NCBI GenBank assembly: GCA_002269645.1
Contig: NIVC01003887.1
Location: forward strand, 1 to 64,000
Reading direction: 5' to 3'
DNA from: Macrostomum lignano
Taxonomy: Eukaryota
Length of the DNA: 64,000 nucleotides
Positions 1-64,000 of the stretch are shown here, in pieces (positions within the stretch are counted from its first letter, which is position 1; each line of letters starts with the position of its first letter). Below the pieces are notes generated by a model, which saw only the letters and a list, made by a program, of their open reading frames with translations, made no database searches and was not told where the DNA came from. The translations under genes and the position numbers were made by a program.

Positions 1-714
1 GGATGGCTCCCGATGAGATGCCCATTTCGGCCTCTATCTGAGACACAGTCAACCCTGGCATCAATCCTAAATAATGGCCCGAATAGCAGAAACATTTCAT
101 TCCTTGCTGCGGAGGTGCCAGCCACTGCACTCTTCATCATCCAGACTCCGCTGGCCACGTCGAAACTTTCGGCAAACCACCAAAAATATAGTGCTGGAAG
201 GTGCTTCATTGACAAAAGCCGCTTAAAGTTTCTCAAAGCTCTCCTGCTGCCTTAAACATTTTGTAGTTATTATAAACCATTGCTCTCCAATGGCCCTCTT
301 TGAGCTCCATTGTGTATTATCCGTGTTAAAGGGGTATGCTAACTTTTAGTGTGCGCAGCACAGGCTTTATAGAGTCAATTTGTCTAATATTGCACAAATA
401 TAATAAAATAATGTACATTATTATACCTGCTATGCTAAATTGTGTAGATACATTCCACTTCGTGTGCATCCGGAACTTATTGAATACCCCTCGTATGATT
501 TATTTTACTCTCAAGCAGTAATGCTGCTCAAATGCCAAATTGTACTCAGGCTCTTTGCTGTTACCATCAGCTGCTATCGCTATTTGTGAGCTTTGTAACG
601 AATTGATCAAATATACTCATGTGTGACTCTAGCATACCGGAGCTGCCCGACTCTCAGCACTGAGTGGCTGCCATGTTTGCTTAACTCAACTGCTTATAAA
701 AATGAAATTGGGGG

Positions 715-20252: not shown

Positions 20253-20517
20253 TGTCGTGCCGTGAACTTGGCATAAAGAAACTCAAGGTTTATTTTAACT
20301 AGCAAGTAGCTTATTAAATAATGACACGAGCAAGGGCCGAGAGAACACCGAAATAAAGTCACGTGATGATAAATAACTACGTACAAGTACATGGCGGCTT
20401 AGGGGATGGCCAGTCAGAGCGAAGGGAGAGGAAAGAATGGTGTGCACGTACGATGCACGTACATAGCATAAGCTAGTTAGTTAGCCAGTGCCTAGAGCTC
20501 AGCGCTCCGGCACCACA
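20253..20517 (-). repeat. 5' LTR
   Basis: Direct repeat of 16191-16455. Confidence 0.95.
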
Positions 20518-21479: not shown

Positions 21480-24400
21480 ATGATGGAGCCATGGATATTA
21501 CCATTTCCTGACGAAAAAGTAAGTAGAGTTAAGTTAAGCAAATGCAAGCTTAGTAATATTTTATTCTCAAATGCAGTTGCAGCAACTCACTCACATGTTT
21601 GAATGTGCAGCTTGGGTGCCTCAATTGCAGTTGCAGAAACTCACTCAGCCGGACCCCAGCAACCGGCCAAGCGTCGGAGACTCAACAGCCGATCTCCACA
21701 CTCTCGCCCACGACGTCATCCGAGGTGACTTCGGCCAGGTACGGCGGCTGGCAACGCGCCAGCTGGTCACCAGCGCTGATGCAGCTCATCAGACCGTCCT
21801 CATGCTGGTGGCCGACGCTCCTGAGACTCCCGTGCAGACTGAAAAAAGCATCTTGTACTTATTTGAGCTGGGCGCGAACCCTAAGGCGGCTGACGCGAAC
21901 GGCGACACGGCTGCGCACCTAGCAGCCCGACGGGACCACCTGCGGCTGCTGACGCTGCTGTCATTCGATTCGAAGTGGCTGCGGAACGACAACGGCGCCA
22001 CTCCGCTGATGGAGGCGTCGCGGACTGGAAGCTGGAAATGCGCCAAGCACCTGCTGCACCTGCTCAGGCAGTGGAGATTCAATGAGTACATAAATCACAG
22101 AAACTCGAAGAGGTCGCGGCTGCTCGGACTGAAAGATCCTGAGGGTCGGACGGCGTCGGACCTGGCGACGCTCAGCGGCCACTCGGAGCTGGCCAGCTAC
22201 ATCGAGCGGTGAGTGAGCAGTTCGCTGCTGTGTCCATCAAGTTTTGCAGCATTCGGCTGGGGTGGCCAGAGCTGCAGTCTCAGGCCAGCCAATCAGAGCC
22301 AGTCAGCTGAGCTTGTCTCTGACTGACTGCTTGATGGGCGAGAGCTGTGATTGGCTGGCTGCCTCCCAGCCAATGGGGTGCCGGTTGATCTCAGTCGAGA
22401 GTGGAAACTGTAGGGCCTCGGTGTGCAGTGAGAGTGTGTGGGTTGAGCTGCAGATGAAGAACTGAGAAGCTGCAGTGCATGAGTGCTTTGTGAAACATTT
22501 TGAGACTCGTGCTGCAGAAATTCAAAATGAGCTGTGTGTGAGAAGTGGGATGCGCTCTCGCCAATGCTAATTGTTTCAGAGATGCCCAGTCCTCTTTTAG
22601 ACTCCATCTGCGAGCAGCTCAATTAATTAGGAACTTCTGTTTACAAAATTTATCATGAAAATTAATTCTCTCGTACAACTTAAAATTTATTTTTAGCGAT
22701 CATAGTAGTTGTGAGAAAACTTTAAATTCGCTGCTCATTTTTGCTGTTGCAGGGAGATGCGGCTGGATGTAAAACGTTTTGGCGTAATTTCCGGACTGAC
22801 AGCCCAGGTGAGCGGCATCTGCGGTGCCGATGCGGCTGCAGCTGAGCAGCTGTGCTCAAATTTCTTGCTTGCCTTTGCAGGAGGAGGCGGATCGACAGAA
22901 ACTGCAGCGGCTGGCTGAGGCGGGCGACTCAGCGGGGCTGCGGCGAGCGGCGACCCACGGCAGCTGCGACCTGCCTGACAGTTTTGGTTCCACCGCACTG
23001 ATGTGGGCAGCTCACAACAGCTCGTGCGCTGATGAGGCTCTGTGGGAGAAGCTGGTGCAGCTGGGTGACCCCACGTTTGAGGATTTTCTATCTGACAGTT
23101 GCCTGCACCATGCAGCTAATGCTGGCAATTCTGCCGCAGCCTCCGCTCTGCTGGCTGCTGGAGCCTCCGTTAATGCCAAGAATCACTGTGAATACACACT
23201 CCTCATGGAGGCAGCGATTTTTGCACCCCCCGCCACCGCCGCCGCAGTCGGTCATGTTCTGCTGGACTCAGGGGCGGATTGGAGCCTGACGGACAATAGG
23301 GGAATGACTGCGCTGGATTTGGCCACACAGCAGCAAAATAGCGAACTGGCTGAGCTGCTGCGTGGGTGAGTTTCCATGGCGACATAGAATGTCTCTCTGA
23401 CTTTGATTTCTCACGGATAAAAATTATTGCCGTAATATATGATTGTGTTGTGAGCTGCGCCTCACAATGCGCTTGCCGCGACCCCTGCGCTCTCCGCCTC
23501 TCCTCTCCCTGCGGCTGGCTTATTCTGGCTTGCCCCCCCCCCCTCCGTCTTAAGCTGCTATTCTTCATTTTTTCCGTTTTCATTTTTATTAGTTGGAATC
23601 TTTTCGTCTCTCATCAGGCTAGTCCAATAATGTCTCTCGCCGCGGAGGCACCTGATTGGCTAGCCTTCCCCCTTCTTTCTCTCTCGAAGTTTAAATCTGT
23701 GAGTCCCCCCCCCAACCTCCATCCCTGTGTTGCTTAGCCCCACCCAGCCCCTTGCTCACCCAGTATTTATGTGTGCTGAATAGCAGCATCCTCATCCACA
23801 GTTCCTTCTTGCCGTAGGGCTGGACGAGTGCCTGTCCGCTCAAAGCCTCTCCAATTTCGCTTCGAAGTGTCTTTACGCCTCGGGGTCGCTTATCATACCC
23901 ACCAGGCTCTGGGCAGTCCAGCACCCGAACTCCAGCAGAAAAGACAACCCTTCAATATTGAGCAGCTGACTGCAGTTGCTCTGAGTGGGCATTTTTACAT
24001 TTTTGTTGTTTAAATGGGCAGCAGGGACTGACTGAGCTGCATTGAGGGATTTTACAGTGCAGTTTGACTGCAGATTGCCAGTTGAATATTAATTTTCAGC
24101 TGCCTGCGAGCTATGAGACACCAGCAAGTATTTTTCTGTGACATTTGAGTAAAACAGCAACCAGAGTATTTCTTTTTTGTTGCTTTTCTCTGCCTCACCA
24201 CTCACATGAGGTGGCTCTCACCTGAATTTCACTGACTTCAGACTCCGAACTGCCTATTTAGGTATGACGGCAAGATTTACTTCGACGAGCCTCTGGCAGT
24301 GCCGTGAGTTCCCACAGCTATACAGCACACACGGCTACAGCACACACAGCTACAGCACACACAACTACAGAACACACAGCTACAGCACACATAGCTACAG

Positions 24401-25518
24401 CACACACAGCTACAGCACACAGCTAAGGAACACACAGCTACAGCACACACCTACAGCACACAGCTACAGCACACATAGCTACAGAACACACAGCTACAGC
24501 ACACACAGCTACAGCACACAGCTACAGCACACAGCTACAGCATGCAAATTATCCCTCATTGCCTCAATTCGCATCCCTTCAGACCCGAAGGCCCCCTGTT
24601 CCTGGAGCGCTGGGACGCCGTTCGTCTCATCGGCCGTGGAGCCTTCGGCGAAGTTCACGAAGTTCGAACTGACACGGGCGTCACGTGCGCTGCCAAGACT
24701 CTCAGACTGCCTGTGCAGCTCGGTGATGAGCTGCCCTCTGTGAGCACAGAGATCCACAGAGCTGTCGAGAGCGAGAGAAACCTGTGCCGACTGCGGCATC
24801 CCAACATCGTCAGGTTCTTGCACATCGCTCAGCCGGAGCCCGACACAGTCGTTGTGTTCATGGAGCTGCTGGACGGCCGAAGCTTGGAGAGGCTTATCGA
24901 CAACAAGCCGCTGGACGAGCTGACAATTCGAGACTTCAGCGAGCAGGTGAGTATTGTGCATCCTTGATGCTCCTGTTTTATCTTCCCATGAACGATGACT
25001 GCTCACTGACCGACCGCTTGCAGATCTGCCGCGCGCTGCTCTACCTGCACAGCCGGCAGCCGCCCGTGATCCACAGAGACATCAACTGCTCGAACATAAT
25101 CGTTCGTGCTGACAACACGCGAATCAAGCTGATCGACTTCGGCCTGTCAATCAAGCTGGAGCAGTCAGTCAGCCACATATCAGCCTCCACTCAATCACCC
25201 AAAGGCACTCTGAACTTCATGGCGCCAGAGCTGCTCGGAGCGGGAGAGTCGGACAGCGTGCAGTACAGCAGAGAGTCGGACATCTGGGCTTTCGGCTGCT
25301 CGGTCTTCCAGATGGCGTCCGGCGCGAGGTCGTTCGCCAATGTCAGAAGCATGTTACGAATGGCCCAGCTGATTGATAGGAGCGGCGCCCCTGCCCTGCC
25401 GGACGGCCGGTCCGCAAAACTTCAGGATTTCTACAGCCGCTGCACCGCCAAGGACCGCAGGAAGAGAAACTCGGCACAGGAACTGCTGCAGCACGAGTTT
25501 CTGGCTAGTCTGACTTGA
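21480..25518 (+). CDS. Ankyrin-repeat Ser/Thr kinase, paralogue 2 (apparently intact, 685 aa)
   Basis: Exons 21480-21518, 21631-22208, 22753-22807, 22881-23365, 24262-24303, 24583-24946, 25024-25518 sum to 2058 nt with matching phases (0,2,0,2,2,0) and canonical GT-AG. About 7-8 ankyrin repeats in two blocks, then GRGAFG, AAK, HRDINCSN, DFG, APE. Confidence 0.85.
24312..24542. repeat. CTACAGCACA-type minisatellite in intron 5 of paralogue 2
   Basis: Homologous to 6229-6422. Confidence 0.9.
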
Positions 25519-26029: not shown

Positions 26030-27062
26030 AGCAGCAACAACACCAAACCAAAATACGCTGTCAGCATAACAGGGCGCGTTTCAGGGCCGAATTCGGTGCG
26101 TCAGCAAGCAGGCAGTCGACGAAACGCCGATTGTGCACCTGCCCCTGCCTGTAAGGTGCCTGCAGCGTCAGCAGCAGCACCTCCTGCACCGGTTGTCGGC
26201 AGTACGTCTCGGCGCGGATGTGTTGGCCTGCAAGCTGGAGTCGCCGACGGCGCAACAGGTCGCTTGGACGGACGAGGCCGGCGCAGTGATACAAAGCCGC
26301 TTTGGTCACTCGCTCGTAGCCCATCTTGAAAGCAGCGCGCAGCAGGTTAGCATGCGCCGCGTTAACTTGTTGCTCGAGCGACTCCATTAGCGTCCAGGTC
26401 TCGGCGTTGTACGGCAGGACGGTCTCGACCACTGTCTGGAACAACGCTGCCCTCTGGCGGTCAGGTAAGGCCTCGGACTGCAGGACTGCCCTCATAGAAC
26501 GAAAGGCAGCCCAGGCAAGCCCGCGGTGACGTCGCAAATCTTTGCGGACGTCAAGAACTAGACCGCTGAGGTTGATGAACTGCTTACAGCGCGGAAGCTT
26601 TGTCGCCTGTCCATCAGCGCCTCGGCACAAAATCGCAGACTCTATGTCATCTGGCATGCAGAGCACGACGGTCTTCTGCACGTTGACCACCAGGCCGACA
26701 CTCGCCGCAACAGCAACTAACCGCCATGATGGCGGTAATCAGCTGCTCTGGCACGTTGTACGCAGGAAACACCTTTGGGAGCACACACATAACGACTAAG
26801 TCGAATGCCTTCTTGAAATCTAGGATATGAATATGACAATCAAAATCGATTGGAGCGTCCTCGCTTCCTCGATGACTCGGCGAAGAGCTATGAAGTAGGA
26901 TCTGCGTCATTGTGCCGCGATGAGGCCGTAAGCCGTTCTGCTCAGGATGCAAGTACGGATCCAGCACCGGCTGCAACCGCGATAGCAACATCCGGTTGAA
27001 CAGCTTTGCAGCGCAGGACTGAAGGCAGACACCTCGATGCTCCTCAAGCCTCGTGGTGCCCA
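26030..27062 (-). mobile_element. 5'-truncated, internally deleted RTE-like LINE reverse transcriptase relic
   Basis: HRGVCLQSCAAKLFNRMLLSRL...EQNGLRPHR, DFKKAFD, GLVVNVQKT, FQTVVETVLPYNAETWTL. The QG and YADD segments are missing. Confidence 0.8.
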
Positions 27063-27075
27063 GCTTTAAGCCCGG

Positions 27076-30000
27076 ATTTTAAGCTACATGATCCTTCACT
27101 TGAACTGCATGGATTTCAAGCTACATGATCCTCTACCTGAACTGCATGGATTTTAAGCTACATGATCCTTCACTTAAACTGCATGGATTTCAAGCTACAT
27201 GATCCTTCACTTGAACTGCATGGATTTCAAGCTACATGATCCTTGACTTGAACTGCATGGATTTTAAGCTACATGATCCTTCACTTGAACTGCATGGATT
27301 TTAAGCTACATGATCCTTCACTTGAACTGCATGGATTTCAAGCTACATGATCCTTCACTTGAACTGCATGGATTTTAAGCTACATGATCCTTCACTTGAA
27401 CTGCATGGATTTCAAGCTACATGATCCTTCACTTGAACTGCATGGATTTTAAGCTACATGATCCTTCACTTGAACTGCATGGATTTTAAGCTACATGATC
27501 CTTCACTTGAACTGAATGGATTTTAAGCTACATGATCCTTTACCTGAACTGCATGGATTTAAAGCTACATGATCCTTCACTTGAACTGCATGGATTTTAA
27601 GCTACATGAACCTTCACTTGAACTGCAAGGATTTTAAGCTACATGATCCTTTACCTGAACTGCATGGATTTAAAGCTACCAGTACATGATCCTTCACTTG
27701 AACTGCATGGATTTTAAGCTACATGATCCTTTACCTGAACTGCATGAATTTTAAGCTACATGATCCTTCACTTGAAGTGCATGGATTTTAAGCTACATGA
27801 TCCTACACTTGAACTGCATGGATTTTAAGCTACATGATCCTTCACTTAAACTGCATGGATTTTAAGCTACATGATCCTTCACTTGAACTGCATGGATTTC
27901 AAGCTACATGATCCTTCACTTGAACTGCATGGATTTCAAGCTACATGATCCTTCACTTGAACTGCATGGATTTTAAGCTACATGATCCTTCACTTGAACT
28001 GCATGGATTTTAAGCTACATGATCCTTTACCTGAACTGCATGGATTTAAAGCTACCAGTACATGATCATTCACTTGAACTGCATGGATTTTAAGCTACAT
28101 GATCCTTTACCTGAACTGCATAGATTTTAAGCTACATGATCCTTCACTTGAACTGCATGGATTTTAAGCTACATGATCCTTCACTTGAACTGCATGGATT
28201 TTAAGCTACATGATCCTTTACCTGAACTGCATGGATTTTAAGCTACATGATCCTTCACTTGAACTGCATGGATTTTAAGCTACATGATCCTTCACTTGAA
28301 CTGCATGGATTTCAAGCTACATGATCCTTCACTTGAACTGCATGGATTTTAAGCTACATGATCCTTTACCTGAACTGCATAGATTTTAAGCTACATGATC
28401 CTTTACCTGAACTGCATGGATTTTAAGCTACATGATCCTTCACTTGAACTGCATGGATTTCAAGCTACATGATCCTTCACTTGAACTGCATGGATTTTAA
28501 GCTACATGATCCTACACTTAAACTGCATGGATTTCAAGCTACATGATCCTTCACTTGAACTGCATGGATTTTAAGCTACATGATCCTTCACTTGAACTGC
28601 ATGGATTTTAAGCTACATGATCCTTTACCTGAACTGCATGGATTTTAAGCTACATGATCCTTCACTTAAACTGCATGGATTTCAAGCTACATGATCCTTC
28701 ACTTGAACTGCATGGATTTTAAGCTACATGATCCTTCACTTGAACTGCATGGATTTTAAGCTACATGATCCTTCACTTGAACTGCATGGATTTCAAGCTA
28801 CATGATCCTTCACTTGAACTGCATGGATTTTAAGCTACATGATCCTTCACTTAAACTGCATGGATTTCAAGCTACATGATCCTTCACTTGAACTGCATGG
28901 ATTTCAAGCTACATGATCCTTGACTTGAACTGCATGGATTTTAAGCTACATGATCCTTCACTTGAACTGCATGGATTTTAAGCTACATGATCCTTCACTT
29001 GAACTGCATGGATTTCAAGCTACATGATCCTTCACTTGAACTGCATGGATTTTAAGCTACATGATCCTTCACTTGAACTGCATGGATTTCAAGCTACATG
29101 ATCCTTCACTTGAACTGCATGGATTTTAAGCTACATGATCCTTCACTTGAACTGCATGGATTTCAAGCTACATGATCCTTCACTTGAACTGCATGGATTT
29201 TAAGCTACATGATCCTTCACTTGAACTGAATGGATTTCAAGCTACATGATCCTTTACCTGAACTGCATGGATTTAAAGCTACATGATCCTTCACTTGAAC
29301 TGCATGGATTTTAAGCTACATGAACCTTCACTTGAACTGCAAGGATTTTAAGCTACATGATCCTTTACCTGAACTGCATGGATTTAAAGCTACCAGTACA
29401 TGATCCTTCACTTGAACTGCATGGATTTTAAGCTACATGATCCTTTACCTGAACTGCATGAATTTTAAGCTACATGATCCTTCACTTGAAGTGCATGGAT
29501 TTTAAGCTACATGATCCTACACTTGAACTGCATGGATTTTAAGCTACATGATCCTTCACTTAAACTGCATGGATTTTAAGCTACATGATCCTTCACTTGA
29601 ACTGCATGGATTTCAAGCTACATGATCCTTCACTTGAACTGCATGGATTTCAAGCTACATTATCCTTCACTTGAACTGCATGGATTTTAAGCTACATGAT
29701 CCTTCACTTGAACTGCATGGATTTTAAGCTACATGATCCTTTACCTGAACTGCATGGATTTAAAGCTACCAGTACATGATCATTCACTTGAACTGCATGG
29801 ATTTTAAGCTACATGATCCTTTACCTGAACTGCATAGATTTTAAGCTACATGATCCTTCACTTGAACTGCATGGATTTTAAGCTACATGATCCTTCACTT
29901 GAACTGCATGGATTTTAAGCTACATGATCCTTTACCTGAACTGCATGGATTTTAAGCTACATGATCCTTCACTTGAACTGCATGGATTTTAAGCTACATG

Positions 30001-33000
30001 ATCCTTCACTTGAACTGCATGGATTTCAAGCTACATGATCCTTCACTTGAACTGCATGGATTTTAAGCTACATGATCCTTTACCTGAACTGCATAGATTT
30101 TAAGCTACATGATCCTTTACCTGAACTGCATGGATTTTAAGCTACATGATCCTTCACTTGAACTGCATGGATTTCAAGCTACATGATCCTTCACTTGAAC
30201 TGCATGGATTTTAAGCTACATGATCCTACACTTAAACTGCATGGATTTCAAGCTACATGATCCTTCACTTGAACTGCATGGATTTTAAGCTACATGATCC
30301 TTCACTTGAACTGCATGGATTTTAAGCTACATGATCCTTTACCTGAACTGCATGGATTTTAAGCTACATGATCCTTCACTTGAACTGCATGGATTTCAAG
30401 CTACATGATCCTTCACTTGAACTGCATGGATTTTAAGCTACATGATCCTTTACTTGAACTGCATGGATTTTAAGCTACATGATCCTTCACTTGAACTGCA
30501 TGGATTTCAAGCTACATGATCCTTCACTTGAACTGCATGGATTTCAAGCTACATGATCCTACACTTAAACTGCATGGATTTAAAGCTACATGATCCTTCA
30601 CTTGAACTGCATGGATTTTAAGCTACATGATCCTACACTTAAACTGCATGGATTTTAAGCTACATGATCCTTCACTTGAACTGCATGGATTTTAAGCTAC
30701 ATGATCCTTTACCTGAACTGCATGGATTTCAAGCTACATGATCCTTCACTTGAACTGCATGGATTTCAAGCTACATGATCCTTCACTTGAACTGCATGGA
30801 TTTCAAGTTACATGATCCTTCACTTGAACTGCATGGATTTCAAGCTACATGATCCTTCACTTGAACTGCATGGATTTTAAGCTACATGATCCTTCACTTG
30901 AACTGCATGAATTTTAAGCTACATGATCCTTTACCTGAACTGCATAGATTTTAAGCTACATGATCCTTTACCTGAACTGCATGGATTTTAAGCTACATGA
31001 TCCTTCACTTGAACTGCATGGATTTCAAGTTACATGATCCTTCACTTGAACTGCATGGATTTCAAGCTACATGATCCTTCACTTGAACTGAATGGATTTT
31101 AAGCTACATGATCCTTCACTTGAACTGCATGGATTTTAAGCTACATGATCCTTTACCTGAACTGCATAGATTTTAAGCTACATGATCCTTTACCTGAACT
31201 GCATGGATTTAAAGCTACCAGTACATGATCCTTCACTTGAACTGCATGGATTTTAAGCTACATGATCCTTTACCTGAACTGCATGAATTTTAAGCTACAT
31301 GATCCTTCACTTGAAGTGCATGGATTTTAAGCTACATGATCCTTCACTTGAACTGCATGGATTTCAAGCTACATGATCCTTCACTTGAACTGCATGGATT
31401 TTAAGCTACATGATCCTACACTTAAACTGCATGGATTTCAAGCTACATGATCCTTCACTTGAACTGCATGGATTTTAAGCTACATGATCCTTCACTTGAA
31501 CTGCATGGATTTTAAGCTACATGATCCTTTACCTGAACTGCATGGATTTTAAGCTACATGATCCTTCACTTAAACTGCATGGATTTCAAGCTACATGATC
31601 CTTCACTTGAACTGCATGGATTTTAAGCTACATGATCCTTCACTTGAACTGCATGGATTTTAAGCTACATGATCCTTCACTTGAACTGCATGGATTTCAA
31701 GCTACATGATCCTTCACTTGAACTGCATGGATTTTAAGCTACATGATCCTACACTTAAACTGCATGGATTTAAAGCTACATGATCCTTCACTTGAACTGC
31801 ATGGATTTTAAGCTACATGATCCTACACTTAAACTGCATGGATTTTAAGCTACATGATCCTTCACTTGAACTGCATGGATTTTAAGCTACATGATCCTTT
31901 ACCTGAACTGCATGGATTTAAAGCTACATGATCCTTCACTTGAACTGCATGGATTTCAAGCTACATGATCCTTCACTTGAACTGCATGGATTTCAAGTTA
32001 CATGATCCTTCACTTGAACTGCATGGATTTCAAGCTACATGATCCTTCACTTGAACTGCATGGATTTTAAGCTACATGATCCTTCACTTGAACTGCATGA
32101 ATTTTAAGCTACATGATCCTACACTTAAACTGCATGGATTACAAGCTACATGATCCTTCACTTGAACTGCATGGATTTTAAGCTACATGATCCTTCACTT
32201 GAACTGCATGGATTTCAAGCTACATGATCCTTCACTTGAACTGCATGGATTTTAAGCTACATGATCCTTCACTTGAACTGCATGGATTTTAAGCTACATG
32301 ATCCTACACTTAAACTGCATGGATTTTAAGCTACATGATCCTTCACTTGAACTGCATGGATTTTAAGCTACATGATCCTTTACCTGAACTGCATGGATTT
32401 TAAGCTACATGATCCTTCACTTGAACTGCATGGATTTCAAGCTACATGATCCTTCACTTGAACTGCATGGATTTCAAGCTACATGATCCTTCACTTGAAC
32501 TGCATGGATTTTAAGCTACATGATCCTTCACTTGAACTGCATGGATTTTAAGCTACATGATCCTTCACTTAAACTGCATGGATTTTAAGCTACATGATCC
32601 TTCACTTGAACTGCATGGATTTCAAGCTACATGATCCTTCACTTGAACTTAATGGATTTTAAGCTACATGATCCTTTACCTGAACTGCATGGATTTAAAG
32701 CTACATGATCCTTCACTTGAACTGCATGGATTTTAAGCTACATGATCCTTCACTTGAACTGCATGGATTTCAAGCTACATGATCCTTTACCTGAACTGCA
32801 TGGATTTTAAGCTACATGATCCTTCACTTGAACTGCATGGATTTTAAGCTACATGATCCTTCACTTGAACTGCATGGATTTTAAGCTACATGATCCTTCA
32901 CTTGAACTGCATGGATTTCAAGCTACATGATCCTTCACTTGAACTGCATGGATTTTAAGCTACATGATCCTTTACCTGAACTGCATGGATTTTAAGCTAC

Positions 33001-33105
33001 ATGATCCTTCACTTGAACTGCATGGATTTTAAGCTACATGATCCTTTACCTGAACTGCATGGATTTTAAGCTACATGATCCTTTACCTGAGCTGCATAGA
33101 TTTCA
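27076..33105. repeat. 37-bp satellite array (about 160 units) with higher-order structure
   Basis: Unit CATGATCCTTCACTTGAACTGCATGGATTT(T/C)AAGCTA, head-to-tail with no spacers. Rare variants recur at a 1714-bp spacing. Confidence 0.98.
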
Positions 33106-34805: not shown

Positions 34806-37800
34806 ATGTCAAGCTCTTCAGACGATTCAAATTCCACTTGGGAAGACGAAGAAGTAACTGCTGAGTTCCCTGACTATGCGGTAAGTTAAAGCCACAGAAA
34901 TTTACGATTAGTAACTCCGGTAGCTCGTAAATTCAAGTCTACTCAAAATCTTCCATGCTTAGATGTAGGTCACAGGGTGTGTCAATTTCAGCTGCAAGAA
35001 CTCACTCAAATTGAAGTGATCCTACTTCTAGCTTATGCCCAGTTCTATGCTTTAGTCTAATGCGAACATCAGAAGGTTTTTTCTATCTGGAACACACAGC
35101 ACATGCTTGTGTCCCAGTAAAGATCCCAGTGCGTCAAGCGTTAGAACACATCTAACGGTAGCGTTCAGTGAGAAGGAAGCTCTCGCTCCTTTTTCTCTTT
35201 CTGCTACTCCTCCCTTTTCACTCGCTCTCTCCCTCTCGCTCTCCTACTCAAACTTACCTTCTGAACTCCTAGTCTAAAGTAATCTATTCAGACGATATCC
35301 AGAGTAATCATCTCACCCCACCGTAGAATAAAAAGACTGACGAATCGAGCCTAGACTACAATATCTCAGCCTAACTCAGACATCAGCTGAAAACATGTCA
35401 AGATATCGATGTACAAAAAAGTGTGGTTGGCTCTCCTTTTCACTTTAAATTGTTTTATACAATTGCCTGTTTAACGTCTGTTTAAAGCTGTAACGATAAG
35501 AGAAACTATAGAAATATGACATTCATGCTAAGGGTTGAAGATTGAGAGAAACCTATCGAACATTCGACTTAATTAGATGATTAGAAGCATATACGATTAG
35601 ATGTAGACGTACTTAAAAATCTTTGAATGTGCAGCTTGGGTGCCTCAATCGCAGTTGCAGCAACTCACTCAGCCGGACCCCACCAACCGGGCAAGCGTCG
35701 GAGACTCACCAGCCGATCTCCAGACTCTCGCCCACGACGTTATCCGAGGTGACTTCGGACAGGTACGGCGGCTGGCAACGCGCCAGCTGGTCACCAGCGC
35801 TGATGCAGCTCGTCGGACCGTCCTCATGCTGGTGGCCGACGCTCCTGAGACTCCCGTGCACACTGAAAGTGCATCTTGTACTTATTTGAGCTGGGCGCGA
35901 ACCCCAAGGCGGCTGACGCGAACGGCGACACGGCTGCGCACCTGGCAGCCCGTCGGGACCACCTGCGGCTGCTGACACTGCTGTCGTTCGATGCGAAGTG
36001 GCTGCGGAACGACAACGGCGCCACTTCGCTGATGGAGGCGGCGCGGACTGGAAGCTGGAAATGCGCCAAGCACCTGCTGCACCTGCTCAGGCAGCAGAGG
36101 TTTAGTGATTGCTGGAAGCAGGGAAACTCAAAAAGGTTGCAGCTGTTCGGACTGAAGGATCGCGAGGGTCGGACGGCGTCGGACCTGGCGAGGCTCAGCG
36201 GCCACTCAGAGCTGGCCAGCTACATCAAGCGGTAAGTGAGCAGTTCGCTACTGTGTCCGTCAAGTTCTGCTTAATCGTTCAGAAATAGCTCACATTTTCA
36301 TAATCACAATCTTGGCTGTATGAGAGAAGAGAACCAAATTACAGCTTAAAAGTTCATCATGAAACATTTCCCGGAAGGGTTCAATTAGAAAACGCATTTT
36401 ACTTTCCTTTTTGCTGCAGCGAGATGCGCCTGGCTGTGGATGTCGGTGGCAGGATCTCCGGCCTGACAGCCCAGGTGAGCGGCATATTCGGTGCCGATGC
36501 GGCTGCAGCTGAGCAGCTGTGCTCAAATTTCCCGCTCGCCTTTGCAGGAAGAGGCGGATCGACAGGAACTGCAGCGGCTGGTGAGGGCAGGCGACTCGGC
36601 GGGACTGCGGCGAGCGGCGACCCGCGGTAATTCTGATTTGCCCAATGATTGGGGTCAAACCGCATTGATGTGGGCAGCTCAAAACAGCTCGTGCAGTGAT
36701 GAGACTCTGTGGGAGCAGCTGGTACAGCTGGGTGACCCCACCTGTGCGGATATTTTGGCTGAAAATTGCCTGCACCAGGCAGCCAAGGCCGGGAATTCTG
36801 TCGCAGCCTCCGCTCTGCTGGCTGCCGGAGCCTCCGCCAATGCCAGGGAAGGAGCTGAGTTCACACCGCTTATGTGGGCTGCTTTCACGGCACCGCTCCA
36901 CACCGCCGCTGCAGTCGGTCGGGTTCTGCTGGACTCAGGCTCAAATTGGAGTCTCAAGGACTGCTATGGCATGACTGCGTTTGATTTGGCCAGAAAGAAA
37001 GGAAAGAGCGAACTGGCTGAGCTGCTTCGAGGGTGAGTTTTGATGAAAATGTTGTACCAATATCACCAACCGGCATTGCTCAGAATCCCACAGACCAAGA
37101 TAAGAACACTAAGATCATTTCGAAAGCTTGATTGTTCGCAAAACACGATTCAAATTTCTACACGTTTCAGGCTCAAAGACGAGAAATTTTTCGATGAGCC
37201 TCCGTGAGTTTTTTTCAGCGCAGACACATGTATGTAAGCATACTCTTGAACTGCCGAAGAAAGTCTTAACTCAATTCGCATCCCCTCAGACCCGAAGGCC
37301 CACCGTTCCTGGAGCGCTGGGACGCCGTTCGCCTCATCGGCCGCGGAGCCTTCGGCGAAGTTCACGAAGTTCGAACTGACACGGGCGTCACGTGCGCTGC
37401 CAAGACTCTCAGACTGCCTCTGCAGCTCGGTGATGAGCTACCCTCTGTGAGCACAGAGATCCACAGAGCTGTCGAGAGCGAGAGAAACCTGTGTCGACTG
37501 CGGCATCCCAACATCGTCAGGTTCTTGCACATCGCTCAGCCGGAGCCCGACACAGTCGTTGTGTTCATGGAGCTGCTGGACGGCCGAAGCTTGGAGAGGT
37601 TTATCGACAACAAGCCACTGGACGAGCAGATGATTCGAGACTTCAGCGAGCAGGTGACCATTGTGCATCCTTGATGCGGGGAGGGAGCGCCAGTCTCTGC
37701 GGGGGAGGGAGCGAACCTCCTCCCTCGCAGTCTCCTGTTCCATGTTTCCATGAATGATGACTGCTCACTGACCGACCGCTCGCAGATCTGCCGCGCGCTG

Positions 37801-38328
37801 CTCTACCTGCACAGCGGGCAGCCGCCCGTGATCCACAGAGACATCAACTGCTCGAACATAATTGTTTGTGCTGACAACACGCGAATCAAGCTGATCGACT
37901 TGGGCCTGTCAATCAAGCTGGAGCTGTCAATCAGCCACATCTCAGCCTCCTCTCAATCGCTACCCAAAGGCACTCTGAACTTCATGGCGCCAGAGCTGCT
38001 CGGAGCGGGAGAGTCGGACAGCGTGCAGTACAGCAGAAAGTCGGACATCTGGGCGTTCGGCTGCTCGGTCTTCCAGATGGCCTCCGGCGCGAGGCCGTTC
38101 GCGAACGCCAAAAGCCTGTTAGAAATGGCCCAGCTGATCGACAGGAGGGGCGCCCCCGCCCTGCCAGACGGCCGGTCCGCAGAGCTGAGGGATTTCTACA
38201 GCCGCTGCACCACTAAAGACTACCGGAAGAGAAGCTCAGCACAGGAGCTGCTGAAGCACGAGTTCCTGACGGGAGGGAAGCGTATGCGGAAGGATTTTCC
38301 CTTTGCGCTTTTTGGCGATAGAAAATAA
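34806..38328 (+). CDS. Ankyrin-repeat Ser/Thr kinase, paralogue 3 (one apparent -1 frameshift at about 35866; DLG for DFG)
   Basis: Exons 34806-34880, 35655-36231, 36420-36474, 36548-37032, 37171-37203, 37290-37653, 37786-38328 have the same phases as the paralogues. ACTGAAAGT versus ACTGAAAAGT in copy 1. An in-frame 5' extension via exons at about 34500-34555 and 34756 onward is possible. Confidence 0.8.
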
Positions 38329-43287: not shown

Positions 43288-57752
<14,465 letters not shown>

Positions 57753-57860
57753 GTTTGTACTTTATACGCTTGTAGTGTGCTCGCAATTAATGTCCTAAGT
57801 TTTAAATCTACAGCAGTTAATAGAACTAACTGATTAATCAATGAACTATGCAACAGTGAT

Positions 57861-58070
57861 AGTAGTAGGGGAAATGTGGACTCTGCCGCAGGAATTTCCG
57901 TGGGAAAACCACGGGGCTATAGTGTGTAAACATAGCGCCTATGTAAATGCATTGGTGGACTCTGCCGCAGGGAAAGCCATGGAAATTCCATGGGGCCTTA
58001 GTGAGAGAACATAGGCCTATGTTTTTCTATTGCTGTATGTCTGCTGCAGTGGTTTAGTCTATATAAGGAC
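57861..58070 (+). repeat. Probable left terminal inverted repeat with two 79-bp-spaced subrepeats and a TATA box
   Basis: AGTAGTAG start; TGGACTCTGCCGCAGG at 57877 and 57956; internal palindromes; CTATATAAG at about 58060. The partner TIR is outside the window, so the extent is unknown. Confidence 0.65.
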
Positions 58071-58144
58071 CAAAAAATCTCTTTGATTCATGAAAAAACG
58101 ATTTTTTTTTCGACGAGATAGTTTATTCTGTTAGATTTTAAGTC

Positions 58145-58912
58145 ATGGACATCGGCGAAGGATATAAACTCCAAATACAGGAGTATGAAGGAGTTATGTT
58201 CATTGCTATCAGAAAATTTTACCGACATGGCAGCACTGCGAGTTTGAAACCTGGAGTCCCCGGCTTCAATTTGAACATCCGTCAGTGGGAGAAGCTCAAG
58301 GAGTTGAAGCGATCGCTTGTCAAGGCGGCCTTGGACAAACAGCCAAAGGTTGTCAAACTCGGCTTCGATAAGTTCATCGAAGTGAAAAACGGCATTATCT
58401 GGTTAAAGCGATTGCCGGAGGACTGCTGCGACGAGTTTCTTAAGCGGAACACCGTGCTGCTGACACCGCCGCTGTGGCGAAAGCTGTGGCAGTACGCGGA
58501 TTGGATCGACGAGCAGCTATCGGCTCCACGTGAGATTTCCGATGTATACGAGCTGGAGTCGGGATCTTCCTCCAACAGCATCGAAAATGAAGACGGTGCT
58601 GGCGAAAACGCGGAAGAGACCAAGCCGGTAGTGAAGGCGGAGGACGATGCTCCTGCTGCTGCTGGCGATGTGGCTGGCATGCCATCCAATCTGCAAATCG
58701 ACACAGCGTTTGCCACTTCAACGCCTCTGCAACTGACCAAGCCAGCAGCTGGAGCGATTCCTCGGCAGGACACTGATCTGCAAGAGGACCCAGTCTGGTA
58801 CCAGTTCCGAGCTCAAGCAGCCGCCGCTGAGAACGCCAGGAAACGCAAGCAGCCGCCGTTCGCTCTGCGCAGATTGGACGCCATGAAGCTGCCCAGGCCG
58901 TGCTTCGACTGA
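58145..58912 (+). CDS. PC4/Sub1-like ssDNA-binding domain protein with acidic tail, 255 aa
   Basis: IGEGYKLQIQEYEGVMFIAIRKFY...LKPGVPGFNLNIRQWEKLKE matches the PC4 pattern. A second degenerate copy (KLGFDKFIEVK...LLTPPLWRKL) follows. Confidence 0.7.
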   Translation: MDIGEGYKLQIQEYEGVMFIAIRKFYRHGSTASLKPGVPGFNLNIRQWEKLKELKRSLVKAALDKQPKVVKLGFDKFIEVKNGIIWLKRLPEDCCDEFLKRNTVLLTPPLWRKLWQYADWIDEQLSAPREISDVYELESGSSSNSIENEDGAGENAEETKPVVKAEDDAPAAAGDVAGMPSNLQIDTAFATSTPLQLTKPAAGAIPRQDTDLQEDPVWYQFRAQAAAAENARKRKQPPFALRRLDAMKLPRPCFD

Positions 58913-59076
58913 TTGCAGACCCTCTGACATTGAGACAAACTCTGTGCTACGAGCTTTTTATCCAGACCTGCTTTCCATCTCTTTGTTTGAAAATAAAAAA
59001 TATATGCTTGCTTTCACATGCGCTATACATTTTCAATGTCTTAAGAAAACCTAAAAATGTTTCTTTGTTTCTGAAA

Positions 59077-60143
59077 ATGGAAAAAATTTATTTCAATCCA
59101 AATCAGCCTGCGAGCTATTGCAGTTCTTCAAAACTGCAACATGAACTGCGAAAAAGAGGCGAGCATATTGGAGTCAAGAGCATTGAGCAGTGGCTAAGTC
59201 AGCAGCCAGTACACACTCTGCATAAGCCAGCTAGAGTACGATTTCCAAGGGCGCCAATAATAGTGAGGGCCATTGATGATCAGTGGGAGATGGATCTGGT
59301 GGAAATGATTCCGTTTGCAAAGTATAATCGCGGGCATAAATACATTCTCACCTGCATTGATGTTTTATCTAAATTTGCAATGGCCGAGCACTGAAGTCTA
59401 AGAGCGCGGCAGAAGTGAAATCTGCGTTTGAGAGCATGCTGAAGAGCTCAAAGCGGCAGCCGCGGACTGTCCGCACAGATCAGGGAAAGGAGTTTGTCAA
59501 CGCAATTTTTCGCCAGTTCTGCATAGACCGGGGGATTCTGGCGTTTCCAACTAGCAGTGAGCACAAAGCAGCCATAATTGAAAGATGGAATCGAACTTTA
59601 AAAAGCAAGATGTGGCGTTACTTTACTCACAACAGCACTCTACAATGGCTTGATGTGCTGCCTAAACTGGTCAAGTCCTATAACAATACTTTCCACAGAA
59701 GCATCAAGACTACACCAATGAATGTCAGCAAAGCAAACGAGACTGAAGTGTGGATGAACCTTTATGATGGGAAAGCGATTGAGACAGTTGAGAAACTGAG
59801 AAAACCGAAGTTCTGTGAAAACCAATCAGTGCGGATTTCCAATGCACCCAGACTCTTCAGGAAGGGATACAAGGCGAACTGGAGCGAAGAGGTGTACACC
59901 ATAGTGTCTAGGGCACCAAAGCATTATCCCTACATGTACAGGATTCGAGACATGAAGGGGGAAGACATAAGAGGCCTCTTCCACGAGCATGAGCTGCAAG
60001 CTGTTCCGGACTCGCAGCGGCTGTATGTAATCGAGAAGGTTCTGAAGACTGAGAAGCGGAAGGGTAAGATCCGATATCTCGTCAAGTGGGCCGGCTACAA
60101 GTCCACTGACTGGGTGGATGAGAAGGACTTAAGAAAAGTGTAA
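59077..60143 (+). CDS. Retroviral-type (c-)integrase with C-terminal chromodomain; one -1 frameshift at about 59389
   Basis: QWEMDLVEM, YILTCIDVLSKFA, RTDQGKEF, IERWNRTLK, YNNTFHRSIKTTP, FRKGYKANWSEEVY, chromodomain IEKVL...YLVKWAGY...WV. Adding one C gives AEPLKSKSAAEV. Confidence 0.92.
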
Positions 60144-60173
60144 GATACCGACATTGTGCAGCCATTCCCAACT

Positions 60174-60983
60174 ATGAGAAGCATCATCATTTGTAGCGAA
60201 AATGCTGAAGGTACTCCTAGTGACTTTCATTTTCACCTGCCTTCATCTATTTACTTGGATCGAAATGTGGACTATGAGGCAGGTCTGGCTGAAATCCATC
60301 TGCCTGCTGCATGGTTCAATGTTGACGAGCCTTACTGCTTCACTGTCTCAGATGGAAGAGAGCATGAGGCCCTGGTTCTTCAACCCGGACGCTTTGCTAG
60401 AGTGGAGGAACTGGTGGAACGCCTGAATGAGCTGCTGGCCAACTCTGAGTCACTGTTCTTCGATGCAATGAGCGAAAGGGAGTCTGAAATGGAAGCTGAT
60501 GAGTCCGGTTTAATGGGGCAGAGCAGCGCTAGAGATATTGGCATAAAGTTTGAAATCCAAGAGTTGAGAACAGTAGTGCTCAACAACACGGCTCGAGCAG
60601 AATTGTTCCTTCCATCAAGTAAAATTCTGCAGTGGCTGGGATTCGGAAACCAGCCTGTGAAGATCCCACCCGGACGGCAAGTGTCACTCTGCTGCATCGG
60701 TTGTCCGCCCACCAACCTGATCAACTTGCACTGCAGCATTGTGGAGCGAACAAACTGTAACTGGAACTCCGTGCTGCGAACTGTGAGCATGTCATCCGAT
60801 GTCGAATGGGGCAGCTACATGAGCAAAGTGTTTAAGAAAGCAATTTTCTTCCCGATTCAGAAAGCTAATTTTCTATATGGCATTAGATTTCAACTGCGTG
60901 ACATCTTTGGCTACTCACTGACTGCTCGGAGCAGCAGCCCTGTTCTGCTCACAGTTCATATTCGGGAAAGGCTAATACAATGA
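60174..60983 (+). CDS. Minor capsid (penton-like) protein
   Basis: N-terminal SDFHFHLPSSIYL...YEAGLAEIHLP..W.N and C-terminal LHCSIVE...LRTV...F....FFPI...I.FQLRD..G...LTVHIR motifs typical of the Polinton minor capsid protein. Confidence 0.8.
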   Translation: MRSIIICSENAEGTPSDFHFHLPSSIYLDRNVDYEAGLAEIHLPAAWFNVDEPYCFTVSDGREHEALVLQPGRFARVEELVERLNELLANSESLFFDAMSERESEMEADESGLMGQSSARDIGIKFEIQELRTVVLNNTARAELFLPSSKILQWLGFGNQPVKIPPGRQVSLCCIGCPPTNLINLHCSIVERTNCNWNSVLRTVSMSSDVEWGSYMSKVFKKAIFFPIQKANFLYGIRFQLRDIFGYSLTARSSSPVLLTVHIRERLIQ

Positions 60984-61390
60984 ACTACCAACAGCTGATT
61001 CGTCAGTATTCAGGGACTCTGGCAGGAAGCCAAAAGCCGGCGCTCTATGGCTGTGGGAGTTTTCCAGGAATCATGACTTACCAGCCTCCTCCAGAAGCTT
61101 CCACAAAGTCAATATCGCTATCAAAGCCAGCCCATACCACCGCCAGCGGTAGCAGCAGCAACAGCAGAAGCAATAGAAACAGACCAAAGCAGCGACTAGT
61201 CAAACAGGGCAGTAAGAAGCAGACAAAAAAGAAGAAAAAGAGTAAGACGGAGAAATCACCGAAAAGAAGCCAGTCAGGGCGAAATAAACCTAAGAAAGGG
61301 AGGTCTAAAACTCAAAGCAAGAAAACAGGCAAAGGAAAGCAAAAAGTGAGCAAAAAGACTGTGAAACGTGTTCTGGACTCGCTCTCATAG
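60980..61390 (+). CDS. Small basic putative core protein, 136 aa
   Basis: ATGA overlap with the penton gene; K/R-rich C-terminal half; LYGCG fits the adenain cleavage consensus; lies between the minor and major capsid genes. Confidence 0.65.
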   Translation: MNYQQLIRQYSGTLAGSQKPALYGCGSFPGIMTYQPPPEASTKSISLSKPAHTTASGSSSNSRSNRNRPKQRLVKQGSKKQTKKKKKSKTEKSPKRSQSGRNKPKKGRSKTQSKKTGKGKQKVSKKTVKRVLDSLS

Positions 61391-61392
61391 CA

Positions 61393-62674
61393 ATGGCTTA
61401 CGGATTCAACCCGAGACTCGATTTGTTCAAGTCCCCCATGCTGCAGACTGCCATTGAAAAATCCACATATGTTGATATTCACCCCGTGAACTCTATTGTA
61501 CTAACTCACCTATTGAATTCGACTGTCATCCATCGGCTGATGAGTACACTGATCTGCTGAGCTCATTCCTGTATATTCGCTGTCGCCTAGTCCGGCTTGG
61601 CGGGGCTTTGATGAGGGAGGAGGTTCGAAATGCCGATGGAGTTGTCACTGAGCGCAGAGACAGTGGGGTGCACCCAGAAAACTTTGTCCTGTCTACGGCA
61701 TTCTCAGATGTAATCGTGAGCATCAACCAGCGCATTGTCTCAGGCGGAGACCAGCTCTACCCCTACCATGCCTACCTAAAAGCTCTCATGGGCTCATCCG
61801 ATGCTCAGCAGTTAAAGTTCTACCCCGCCGGATTCCTGGAACCCGAAACTGCTGCTGAGGGGCATGTCGAGAGACACAGGGAGTCCCGCTGGGTGGAGTA
61901 TGCGGGACCGCTGCTCAGCGACATCTTCCAGTGTCCTGTTCTGCTGCTGAACAATTTACACCTGCACATCAAGCTGATGCCCAGCGATACTGCATTCGCC
62001 ATCGAACCCCAGATGAGAACAACACAGCCTACCGAATGGAAATCTCCCACTGCATTCTGAACCTGCGCCGAGTCAAAGTGGCGCCTCACATCAGCCTGGC
62101 GCATGAGCAGGGACTTACCAATCAGAACGCACTTTACCCCATCGAGCGAACCGAAATGCAAAACTTTATTCTACCCCAGGGAATTCAGTCAAAAAACATT
62201 GAAGGATTCACCCATGGCAAACTGCCGAAGTTCGTTATGCTGGTCTTCGTGAACCACCGAGCCTTCAATGGCCATCACCATTCCAGCCCCTTCGAGTTCC
62301 AGAGCTTCAACCTCAGCCAGCTAGCACTAAAGAAAGGTGGTGAAGCCATGTGCCACGCTGCATTTGCACCTGAGAATAATTCATTCGTGAGAGAGTACTT
62401 GCACTACCTGAAAAGCTGTCAGTCAGCCAGCCCTAGCAACTCGGTTCCGTGGGTCCCCTACCAGTTGTTCTCCAACGGCAACACAGCTTTCGCATTCGAT
62501 CTCACGCCTGAGGGAGCGGCCCTGTGGTACGGACAGAAGGAGGGCAATTTGCGGCTGGAGATTCGCTTCCGACAGGCCCTGGAGGAGCCTGTATCTCTGA
62601 TTGTTATGTGCCTGTATGACTCACTGATTGAGGTCACCAAGCACAGGGAGATTCTGTTAGATTTTCCATCCTAG
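61393..62674 (+). CDS. Major capsid (double jelly-roll) protein; two -1 frameshifts at about 61499 and 62008
   Basis: LDLFKSPMLQTAIE, PIEF...EYTDL, YPYHAYL, GPLLSDIFQ...LLNN, SPFEFQSFN, FSNGNTAFAFDLTP, GNLRLEIRF...L are Polinton MCP motifs across three frames. Confidence 0.9.
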
Positions 62675-62697
62675 GAGTACGCTGGCGCAACGCTAAT

Positions 62698-63216
62698 ATG
62701 GATGCTTTTCAACTGCTTAAACTGGCTAAAAGCTTTTTGCCACAAAATAACTGTTTAATTATTGTCTTGAATTCAATAAATAAAACATCTTATGCTTTAA
62801 ACTTTATTCAGCGAGCAACTCTCAAAAGAAATTTATCTCGATGTAAGTTGATTTTCTTTCTGCTTCAGTACAGCTCATCCTTCGGTCACTGGGTGGTTTG
62901 TTATGCTGATAAGGAGAATACCATAGAACTCTTTAACTCTCTGGGCTGGGACTCCAGCACTTTAGAGATCATTCACAGAGCACTGAAATCCTTTTGGTAT
63001 TCTCCATTCTACTTACGTAGCAATGTGAATCGAATTCAGAGCTGTGACTCTGCTAAATGCGGTTTGTTCTGTCTCTTGTTTGCCTATCAAAAGTTTCGTT
63101 TCAAGCGCTCGTTTGAGTGGGTTCTGCGGCACCTCCATGCAAATCAGCAGAGCCACTTGAATGAGAGAATGCTGCAAAGGTTTGAGAGTTGCTTAAGAAA
63201 AAAGAAATTTAATTAG
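62698..63216 (+). CDS. Adenain-like cysteine maturation protease
   Basis: GHWV, FNSLG, IQS...CGLFC, i.e. His, Asn (usually Asp/Glu), Gln and Cys in adenain spacing. Confidence 0.85.
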   Translation: MDAFQLLKLAKSFLPQNNCLIIVLNSINKTSYALNFIQRATLKRNLSRCKLIFFLLQYSSSFGHWVVCYADKENTIELFNSLGWDSSTLEIIHRALKSFWYSPFYLRSNVNRIQSCDSAKCGLFCLLFAYQKFRFKRSFEWVLRHLHANQQSHLNERMLQRFESCLRKKKFN

Positions 63217-63249
63217 ACTTTCAAAATTAGGGATTTAGCTCAACAGGCG

Positions 63250-63903
63250 ATGGAAACACGTGAGCGGATAAACTGTTATGATGTGCGCCTGCGACAGGGA
63301 AGCTGCATGATTGTCAGCGGGCCTACAAATGCAGGAAAGACAACCTTCGTGAAACATCTGATACAATACAAGGATGTCCTGTTTGATGTGAAGCCTGGGA
63401 GAGTTCTGTGGTACTACGGGATTTCACAAGCAGCACACTCTGAGCTCAGCAGTCTCGGCGTGCACCTGCAGCAGGGATTTCCCAGCAGTATCGAGACCGC
63501 ACTGAGACCCAATGACCTGGTTGTATTTGATGACCTGATTGAAGAAACTTCCAATTCTGCTGCAATGCGAAATGTTTTCACTGGAATTGCCCATCATTTG
63601 CCCTGCTTTCTGGTTATGCTCACCCAAAATGTATTTTTTAAAGGGAAGGAGTTGCGAACAATGAGTCTGAATGCGATGTACTTTGTGATCATGAAGAACC
63701 CCAGAGACCAGCTGCAGATTGCAGCGCTGGGCAGGCAGTGCTTTGCTGAGAAGCCCGGATTTCTGCTGTCAGTGTTCAAGCACGTGACATCGCACGGCAG
63801 GGGAGCCTACCTGCTCCTGGATTTTCACCCTTCCACCCCTGATGAGCTGCGGGTCCGGGCTCGAATCCTGCCCAATCAGCGACCCCACCTGGTTTACACT
63901 TAA
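63250..63903 (+). CDS. FtsK/A32-like DNA-packaging ATPase
   Basis: Walker A GPTNAGKT, Walker B LVVFDD, FTGIAHH, TQN, RTMSLNA.YFVIMKNPRD.LQI..LGRQ. Confidence 0.93.
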   Translation: METRERINCYDVRLRQGSCMIVSGPTNAGKTTFVKHLIQYKDVLFDVKPGRVLWYYGISQAAHSELSSLGVHLQQGFPSSIETALRPNDLVVFDDLIEETSNSAAMRNVFTGIAHHLPCFLVMLTQNVFFKGKELRTMSLNAMYFVIMKNPRDQLQIAALGRQCFAEKPGFLLSVFKHVTSHGRGAYLLLDFHPSTPDELRVRARILPNQRPHLVYT

Positions 63904-63950
63904 GAATAACAGCCGAGATTTTGGCATTTGTTCTATATTCTGCAACACTA

Positions 63951-64000
63951 ATGATAATGGAAACATTTGACTCTCATGAAAGTTTGTTTGATGTTCTCGC
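63951..64000 (+). CDS. Possible start of the next Maverick gene, truncated by the window end
   Basis: ATG ATA ATG GAA ACA... stays open to the window edge, 47 nt after the ATPase stop. Confidence 0.3.
   Translation, partial: MIMETFDSHESLFDVL

Follow-up and report, generated by a model that had tools for sequence, protein, structure and literature searches.

What becomes of a receptor gene when a transposon that carries virion genes settles inside it, and how are the genes of the transposon itself controlled? Both questions are raised by a 64,000-nucleotide stretch of the Macrostomum lignano genome (the window: positions 1-64000 of contig NIVC01003887.1, here C3887, which has 71,380 bases in total), where an element of the Maverick/Polinton type begins at 57861 within a gene resembling metabotropic glutamate receptors (mGluRs). 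The reading that we favour, to which we give a probability of roughly 0.62, is that a young Maverick/Polinton of about 16.3 kb sits in the 305-nt intron 7 of this gene, at one of three homologous loci and between the copies of a 6-bp duplication; that it is likely spliced out; that the breaks in its reading frames are likely for the most part assembly errors; and that its own TATA-binding protein (TBP) likely reads a variant box, TTAAGAA, in front of its integrase and virion genes. The insertion itself is that of an ordinary Maverick in an intron. It is the TBP and the variant TATA box that are unusual.

The left end of the element, which starts with AGTAGTAG, lies 108 nt past the GT donor (57753) of receptor coding exon 7 (57641..57752, plus strand, identical to the empty locus on contig C1149), and the hexamer AGTGAT stands just upstream of it at 57855..57860. 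C3887 stops inside the element, and the right part is found on an overlapping contig, C2668 (C2668:1-11212 overlaps C3887:60172-71380 at 99.2%). When the right end followed by AGTGAT was searched genome-wide, a single match was returned, C2668:13986-14008 (backwards control 0), with the right copy of the hexamer at 14003-14008. The left terminal inverted repeat (TIR), of about 135 bp (57861..57995) and starting (AGT)2, is 97% identical to the right end over 136 nt. The upstream flank exists on exactly three contigs in the assembly (C3887, C1149 and C1803), as does the downstream flank (C2668, C1149 and C1803). C1149 and C1803 each carry both flanks on one contig and no element: the intron is there 305 nt long and holds one AGTGAT. 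Given these contig counts and the single hexamer of the two empty introns, the hexamer is truly duplicated, and C3887 and C2668 are the two parts of a third locus, the one that is filled. Added over the two overlapping contigs, the element measures about 16.3 kb, inside the Maverick/Polinton size range of 12.7-24.6 kb and close to single-contig copies of the same family (16.2 and 16.5 kb). The original prediction, made from the window's letters, had proposed AGTGAT as the duplication, a right TIR and further receptor exons downstream, and empty sites as a check; each of these was found, the next receptor exon lying 198 nt behind the right end, and the element is indeed intronic.

Its identity as a Maverick/Polinton, also proposed then, is confirmed by the TIRs, the 6-bp duplication, pPolB, the integrase, the double-jelly-roll capsid, the protease and the ATPase. 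These features, together with a length of 15-20 kb and a single-jelly-roll penton, which is only likely here, are what passages of the literature give for Mavericks/Polintons, also called polintoviruses or adintoviruses (PMC4028283, PMC8097293, PMC8502044). TIRs ending in (AGT)2//(ACT)2 or (AG)3//(CT)3 are described for the group in part of one of these sources (PMC8097293), and the ends of the present element are (AGT)2//(ACT)2. The predicted pPolB gene lies past the window on the minus strand (PF03175, E 1.1e-18); it is intronless, has all exonuclease and polymerase catalytic motifs, and falls into the Alpha class by the PF03175 criterion as passages of Starrett 2021 give it (PMC8502044). 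Very probably, linear DNA copied by pPolB was inserted into the intron by the rve integrase, with duplication of the 6-bp target, and copies of the family still moved once the three host loci had diverged.

The receptor insertion is one of many. The terminal 25-mer has 49 exact matches in the genome (control 0), corresponding to about 25 insertions, deletion derivatives among them. We sampled 21 further stretches, namely C2668 and 20 picked by left-end match from the best 40 of 184 candidates, and kept an older relative, C12 (78-90% identical), out of the copy counts. Family copies are 98-99% identical to the window's copy, and differ from one another by a median of 0.78% substitutions (190 pairs). 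Six other copies have both ends and flanks on one stretch: the 6-bp duplication is perfect in five and has a mismatch in one. Two further insertions are split over contig pairs, just as the receptor insertion is, and of three other insertion sites that were checked, one has two empty homologous loci and two are in repeats. From the low divergence of the copies and the empty homologous loci, we infer that the family is young and spread after the host loci diverged; with about 25 young copies, an intronic site is nothing out of the ordinary. The genome thus holds a Maverick/Polinton with defined ends and duplication at an intronic site, empty homologous loci, and about 25 near-identical copies bearing the same ends. 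A dating of the insertion through differences between its left and right repeats was dropped, as those near positions 120 and 125 are present in other compared copies too and are family-wide.

Most of pPolB is missing from some copies (12.1 kb), and others are without the penton-core-capsid block. Deletion derivatives of 1.3 to 14.9 kb with intact ends were seen at C356:361552-362885 and on C109, C84, C106, C3033, C201 and C2520. The loss of pPolB is common to two copies, and that of the penton-capsid block to two; because such pairs carry the same deletion, defective forms were seemingly mobilised in trans. Sister families are mosaic, two of them being 93-100% identical to the present family in capsid, protease and ATPase, yet 45-79% in PC4-like gene, core and integrase, which hints at recombination between families.

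The TBP gene of the element starts at contig position 65509, past the window. Its open reading frame (ORF) of 187 aa contains the two repeats of the fold (Pfam E 4.5e-22, PDB E 2e-17), and it has at least 152 matches genome-wide (150 scored of 237 candidates), identity being 70-90% in several sister families and 38% in one. The matches make up a large radiation of TBP-bearing Mavericks that takes in several families. All ten TBP loci that were fetched adjoin Maverick capsid and ATPase genes. Among 1.84 billion representatives, only five relatives were found at E<=1e-30. The ratio of nonsynonymous to synonymous substitution rates (dN/dS) against sister families is 0.11-0.24, a sign of purifying selection. 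Compared with plant TBP, the four positions that we take to intercalate into DNA are still aromatic (W, Y, F, F), and an Asn, a Val and a Pro of the second repeat, presumably DNA-facing, are changed.

The candidate target of this protein is the motif TTAAGAA, present at seven plus-strand sites in 13.5 kb of the element and standing before seven of its eleven gene starts. Six of the sites are 36-73 nt before the integrase, penton, ATPase, 105-aa, 281-aa and TBP starts, and the seventh is 148 nt before the core. Motif search places those of the window, all on the plus strand, at 59041..59047 (36 nt before the integrase ATG), 60129..60135 (45 nt before the penton-like ATG), 60832..60838 (148 nt before the core-like ATG, a distance identical in 7/7 tabulated copies), 63193..63199 (57 nt before the ATPase ATG) and 63900..63906 (51 nt before the next ORF). 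Random starts, each time with a freely chosen best 7-mer, reached 7/11 in 3 of 5000 trials. The motif recurs at matching places in six sister-family copies, where 43 of 48 gene-block sites lie at most 160 nt from a start, versus about 21% of positions, these copies being related and not independent. Conservation of proteins is no explanation for the sites, which are spread over three reading frames and also occur in non-coding DNA. The PC4-like gene, the first of the array, has a canonical TATA box on the plus strand at 58060..58066, 85 nt before its start (at 70-91 nt in 5/5 sister-family copies).

In a more distant family (C110), CTATAAGA/CTATAAAA are found before several genes. This family also has a different gene order (pPolB, integrase ... 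TBP, PC4-like on the minus strand), with CTATAAGA boxes. Further away, in metagenomic Maverick relatives (12 of 14 loci examined, of which one has no ATG and one too little upstream sequence), CTATAAA stands 46-105 nt before the capsid ATG in eight of the ten with 160 nt upstream, and all 24 of its sites are on the plus strand (0 on the minus strand). It is often seen again near the end of the capsid gene.

These observations suggest, at close to even odds, two promoter classes: the host TBP would act first, on the canonical TATA of the PC4-like gene, and the element TBP would then act on TTAAGAA for the rest. More tentatively, this Maverick clade may own a private transcription switch, in which a re-tuned TBP reads a box that has drifted beyond the reach of the host and thereby activates the integrase and virion genes after the host-read early gene, in a family that is young and still mobile. 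Several points weigh against such a scheme. The distance window for TTAAGAA was picked after looking at the data, and the exact motif is absent before four of the eleven starts (PC4-like, capsid, protease and 240-aa ORF). A canonical TATA was seen before pPolB in the family of the receptor-intron element only, the start codons of pPolB in five sister copies not being located. A change of motif together with a change of TBP finds no support on the 14 short metagenomic contigs, where a TBP gene was not found. Finally, TTAAGAA also precedes the TBP gene, an arrangement that a strict two-step cascade leaves unexplained. This last point, and the plain CTATAAA of distant relatives, would fit an alternative that we consider a real though lesser possibility, namely that TTAAGAA is a true promoter box read by the host TBP/TFIID or another host factor, the element TBP being a decoy, a helper at any TATA, or a replication aid. 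However, it is precisely in the clade whose conserved TBP has altered DNA-facing residues that the motif has departed from the TATA consensus, and the PC4-like gene has retained its canonical TATA in 6/6 copies.

The reading frames of the receptor-intron copy are broken at three places within the window: once in the integrase, near 59.4 kb, and twice in the capsid gene, near 61.5 kb and near 62.0 kb. Indels were counted in per-gene alignments, pairwise BLAST being used for the count of private substitutions only. Nearly all frameshift events are single-base. The pPolB gene has 13 frameshifting indels on C3887 versus none on the overlapping C2668, which also lacks the first capsid break and has breaks of its own in core, capsid and protease. 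Only one substitution is private to the window's copy, as against many single-base indels. At the integrase break and the first capsid break, the short-read contigs of all four runs used (out of 24 listed, from 4 studies) disagree with the window, as do those of both runs that reach the second capsid break. Across the family, 16 of 21 copies have an integrase with no frameshifting indel, and dN/dS of the core genes against sister families is 0.04-0.31, that is, under strong purifying selection. The three breaks in the window are thus probably consensus errors in a collapsed repeat. On the other side, the capsid gene is free of frameshifting indels in just 5 of 17 copies and pPolB in just 1 of 13; and, the first capsid break being shared by none, the integrase break is common to one of 20 other copies and the second capsid break to four of 16. 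Rare variants are lost from short-read contigs, which could therefore miss a lesion present in a single copy. Moreover, the two contigs of the same insertion are 0.36% substitutions and about 50 gaps apart, so the interior of the element may be a mosaic of copies and true lesions are possible. That the frameshifts are artefacts, which the original prediction had set as the condition under which the element may be able to form virions, is likely in view of the open frames elsewhere and the short-read contigs, but is not proven for the receptor-intron copy.

The host gene has seven coding exons upstream of the element that resemble mGluR ligand-binding domains. Exons 1-5 (plus strand, ~43432-43752, 51658-51834, 51906-52088, 53500-53673 and 54815-54961) were delimited by tblastx against two paralogues and give ANF_receptor matches (mGluR3, E 1e-17); exon 6 (57124..57414, plus strand) has mGluR8/7 as its best PDB matches (E 5e-15). 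Exon 8, behind the element on C2668, encodes the nine-cysteine and 7tm_3 domains, so that the gene has the ligand-binding, nine-cysteine and seven-transmembrane (7TM) parts of an mGluR-like class C G protein-coupled receptor. At the filled locus, exon 8 differs from the two empty loci by 0 and 1 residues over its first 400. Past the 7TM region, its open frame runs for 474 aa at the filled locus and 520 aa at both empty loci, with different tails, through an indel error or an unmapped intron. Compared with mGluR3/8, the receptor has, in exons 1 and 6, Ala for a conserved Arg (GIQRLEA) and Gln for a conserved Lys (EGKVQFV), two residues that presumably contact the gamma-carboxyl of the ligand. 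It may thus not be a glutamate receptor, as in the glutamate-blind DmXR type. The likeness to Drosophila DmXR/mangetout and planarian GSMD001419, as passages of PMC2695807 and PMC3261222 present them, is that of an mGluR-like receptor with two conserved pocket residues replaced.

The element lies in the sense direction of the receptor, with sense AATAAA signals at 58992, 62775 and others, ahead of the exon that anchors the protein in the membrane, which is a point against an undisturbed transcript. Splicing of intron 7 would remove the element from the receptor transcript, and this is the leading reading because the insertion has spared the splice sites and intron 7 would not be the only long intron of the gene. 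On these grounds, the filled allele likely still yields receptor, or else the two empty loci make up for what is lost. In the short-read run X10, introns are covered like exons, and run X18 covers the element only, at a depth of 2-14, as shallow DNA would too. An X10 contig that stops at the exon 7 donor was rejected as a sign of splicing, the same contig being unbroken through intron 6.

Three other accounts of this copy have to be set against the reading of a young, spliced-out and largely misassembled element. One, that the join is an assembly chimera and the intron has no element, would make use of C3887 ending within the element and of no piece that bridges the junction being among the short-read contig pieces listed for the four runs; yet the left and right junctions come from two separate contigs, which agree on the duplicated hexamer and between them supply precisely the two halves of the empty intron, and we hold a chimera to be extremely improbable. 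If the join is real, the receptor-intron copy might still be a dead fossil whose breaks are true mutations, the activity of the family having come from other copies or having ended. In favour of this, C3887 has 16 frameshifting indels over its integrase, capsid and pPolB genes, and some of its breaks are shared with other copies. It nevertheless seems improbable when C2668 has none of the 13 pPolB breaks nor the first capsid break, when a single private substitution beside many single-base indels is the pattern of consensus errors, and when short-read contigs depart from the window at the breaks.

Whatever the state of the element, the insertion could also knock out or truncate the receptor allele, transcripts ending at the sense poly(A) signals or entering the early stop of the intron to yield only the extracellular ligand-binding part. 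The shared orientation, the sense AATAAA sites, a site that separates precisely the last ligand-binding exon from the cysteine-rich/7TM exon, and an intron that swells from 305 nt to about 16.6 kb are all in line with it. We still think it unlikely: two introns of the gene are long in any case (about 8 kb and 2 kb), an AATAAA is present even in the empty intron, the splice sites are untouched, and exon 8 has no decay, although so recent an insertion would have left little time for it. Splicing-out remains, on balance, our preferred account of the receptor.

The genes of the element within the window are all on the plus strand in a compact array. The co-directional array of virion genes and integrase stands as first described, penton and core on weaker evidence than the others. 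It opens with the PC4-like ORF (58145..58912, 255 aa; Pfam PF02229, E 4e-6), which had not been named before. The integrase (59077..60143) combines an rve domain with a C-terminal chromodomain (Pfam rve and Chromo); it is in two pieces in the window and matches rve PF00665 at E 2.5e-16 on an unbroken family copy. The likely minor capsid protein, or penton (60174..60983, 269 aa), is so named from its position and from Atlas features at 0.97 to virus clusters that include Sputnik V18/19 (26% of members); its predicted model has a confidence score (pLDDT) of 34, with only one homologue found. A basic ORF follows (60980..61390, 136 aa, 26% K+R and 2% D+E, no Pfam match), for which a core function is inferred. 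We take this core-like ORF and the 105-aa and 240-aa ORFs, from their motifs, to be PW, PM and PZ.

The next gene (61393..62674) encodes the capsid protein. Modelled on an unbroken natural copy of the family (pLDDT 78; predicted template-modelling score, pTM, 0.82; 21 homologues in the alignment), it has PBCV-1, iridovirus, mavirus and Sputnik proteins as best PDB matches (E ~1e-13), and the model identifies it as a double-jelly-roll major capsid protein. It is at most 40% identical to all but four database relatives, and no match to it was found in the 'phages' or viral_contigs sets. The adenain-like cysteine protease (62698..63216, 172 aa, His...Asn...Cys; Pfam PF00770, Peptidase_C5, E 5e-5) keeps His and Cys and has Asn at the acidic position of the triad in 6/6 aligned copies; as these include the distant family, the Asn is not decay. 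The packaging ATPase (63250..63903, 217 aa) has Walker A GPTNAGKT and a Walker B motif, with weak AAA-type Pfam matches below cut-off, and is 39-48% identical to ATPases adjoining the capsid genes of relatives.

The window closes on the start of the 105-aa ORF (63951..64000, plus strand), which continues past it and is followed by the 240-aa and 281-aa ORFs, TBP and pPolB. The N-terminal part of the 281-aa ORF gave a Maelstrom-type lead at 0.88. Its tail, which overlaps TBP, was rejected as a functional domain: dN/dS in its own frame is near 5 in 4/6 comparisons, which makes TBP the selected frame of the overlap. The pPolB gene carries an internal endonuclease VII/HNH-type domain (PF02945, E 4.7e-7; L043:6600-10000). 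In the right part of the element (L044:1530-2891, minus strand), an ORF with no Pfam match combines an N-terminal Cys/His cluster with a variable array of 30-residue proline-rich repeats, and a GAATCG-type short repeat array separates it from pPolB.

Against this background, the element departs from typical Mavericks/Polintons in its TBP and PC4-like genes and the TATA variant before most genes, as well as in its protease Asn and its divergent capsid. The TBP itself shares with cellular and archaeal TBPs (PF00352) the two repeats and the aromatic intercalating positions, and differs from the cellular type in its ~30-36% identity, in having no N-terminal extension and in the altered second-repeat residues. 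MELD viruses, which are midsize and have linear DNA, are likewise given a TBP-like gene (PMC8502044, Fig. 5 legend), where in the passages concerned it is a legend label for elements not associated with animals, with no promoter motif or function; the flatworm element is animal-integrated and belongs to a high-copy radiation. In the portions of the polinton literature covered, TBP appears solely in such adintovirus figure legends, for non-animal relatives (PMC8502044, 10.1101/697771), Repbase and most subscription papers being outside the search, and the text of PMC11161782 has no TBP, TATA or PC4. An HNH insert like that of the element's pPolB is described in passages of Jeong 2023 (PMC10748475) for nematode and oomycete pPolB2, a likeness that concerns the endonuclease VII/HNH-type domain. 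Section 8 of that paper, in naming phyla for pPolB2, does not include flatworms, and 'Macrostomum' was not found in one of its supplements. Orthopolintovirales-related insertions in a rhabditophoran flatworm are mentioned in part of a recent preprint (10.1101/2025.04.19.649669). No publication on the Macrostomum element was found, and it may be recorded elsewhere, in subscription papers, Repbase or preprint supplements outside the search.

The rest of the window contains three tandem copies of an ankyrin-repeat and protein-kinase gene (3455-7437, 21538-25515 and 35867-38325) and an unbroken 1272-aa pol frame of a long terminal repeat retrotransposon on the minus strand (16467-20282; protease, reverse transcriptase, RNase H and integrase), with reverse transcriptase fragments at 13473-13928 and 26650-27078. 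A satellite array of a 37-nt unit repeated 162 times spans 27074-33103, and two others lie in introns of the receptor: TATC x172 (47870-48556) and a 20-nt unit x62 (52167-53412).

Control of genes and formation of particles are open matters for animal Mavericks, whose particles had not been observed according to passages of PMC8097293, and both are touched by a young family that has many copies, a conserved TBP and a promoter variant to match it. The filled and empty alleles of the receptor are a ready comparison for the effect on splicing of a 16-kb insertion in the sense strand. If our reading of the TBP is true, a natural TBP with a shifted box preference would be of interest for transcription biology, and a private switch of this kind would let Polinton gene regulation and particle formation be watched directly in a flatworm that is a laboratory animal.

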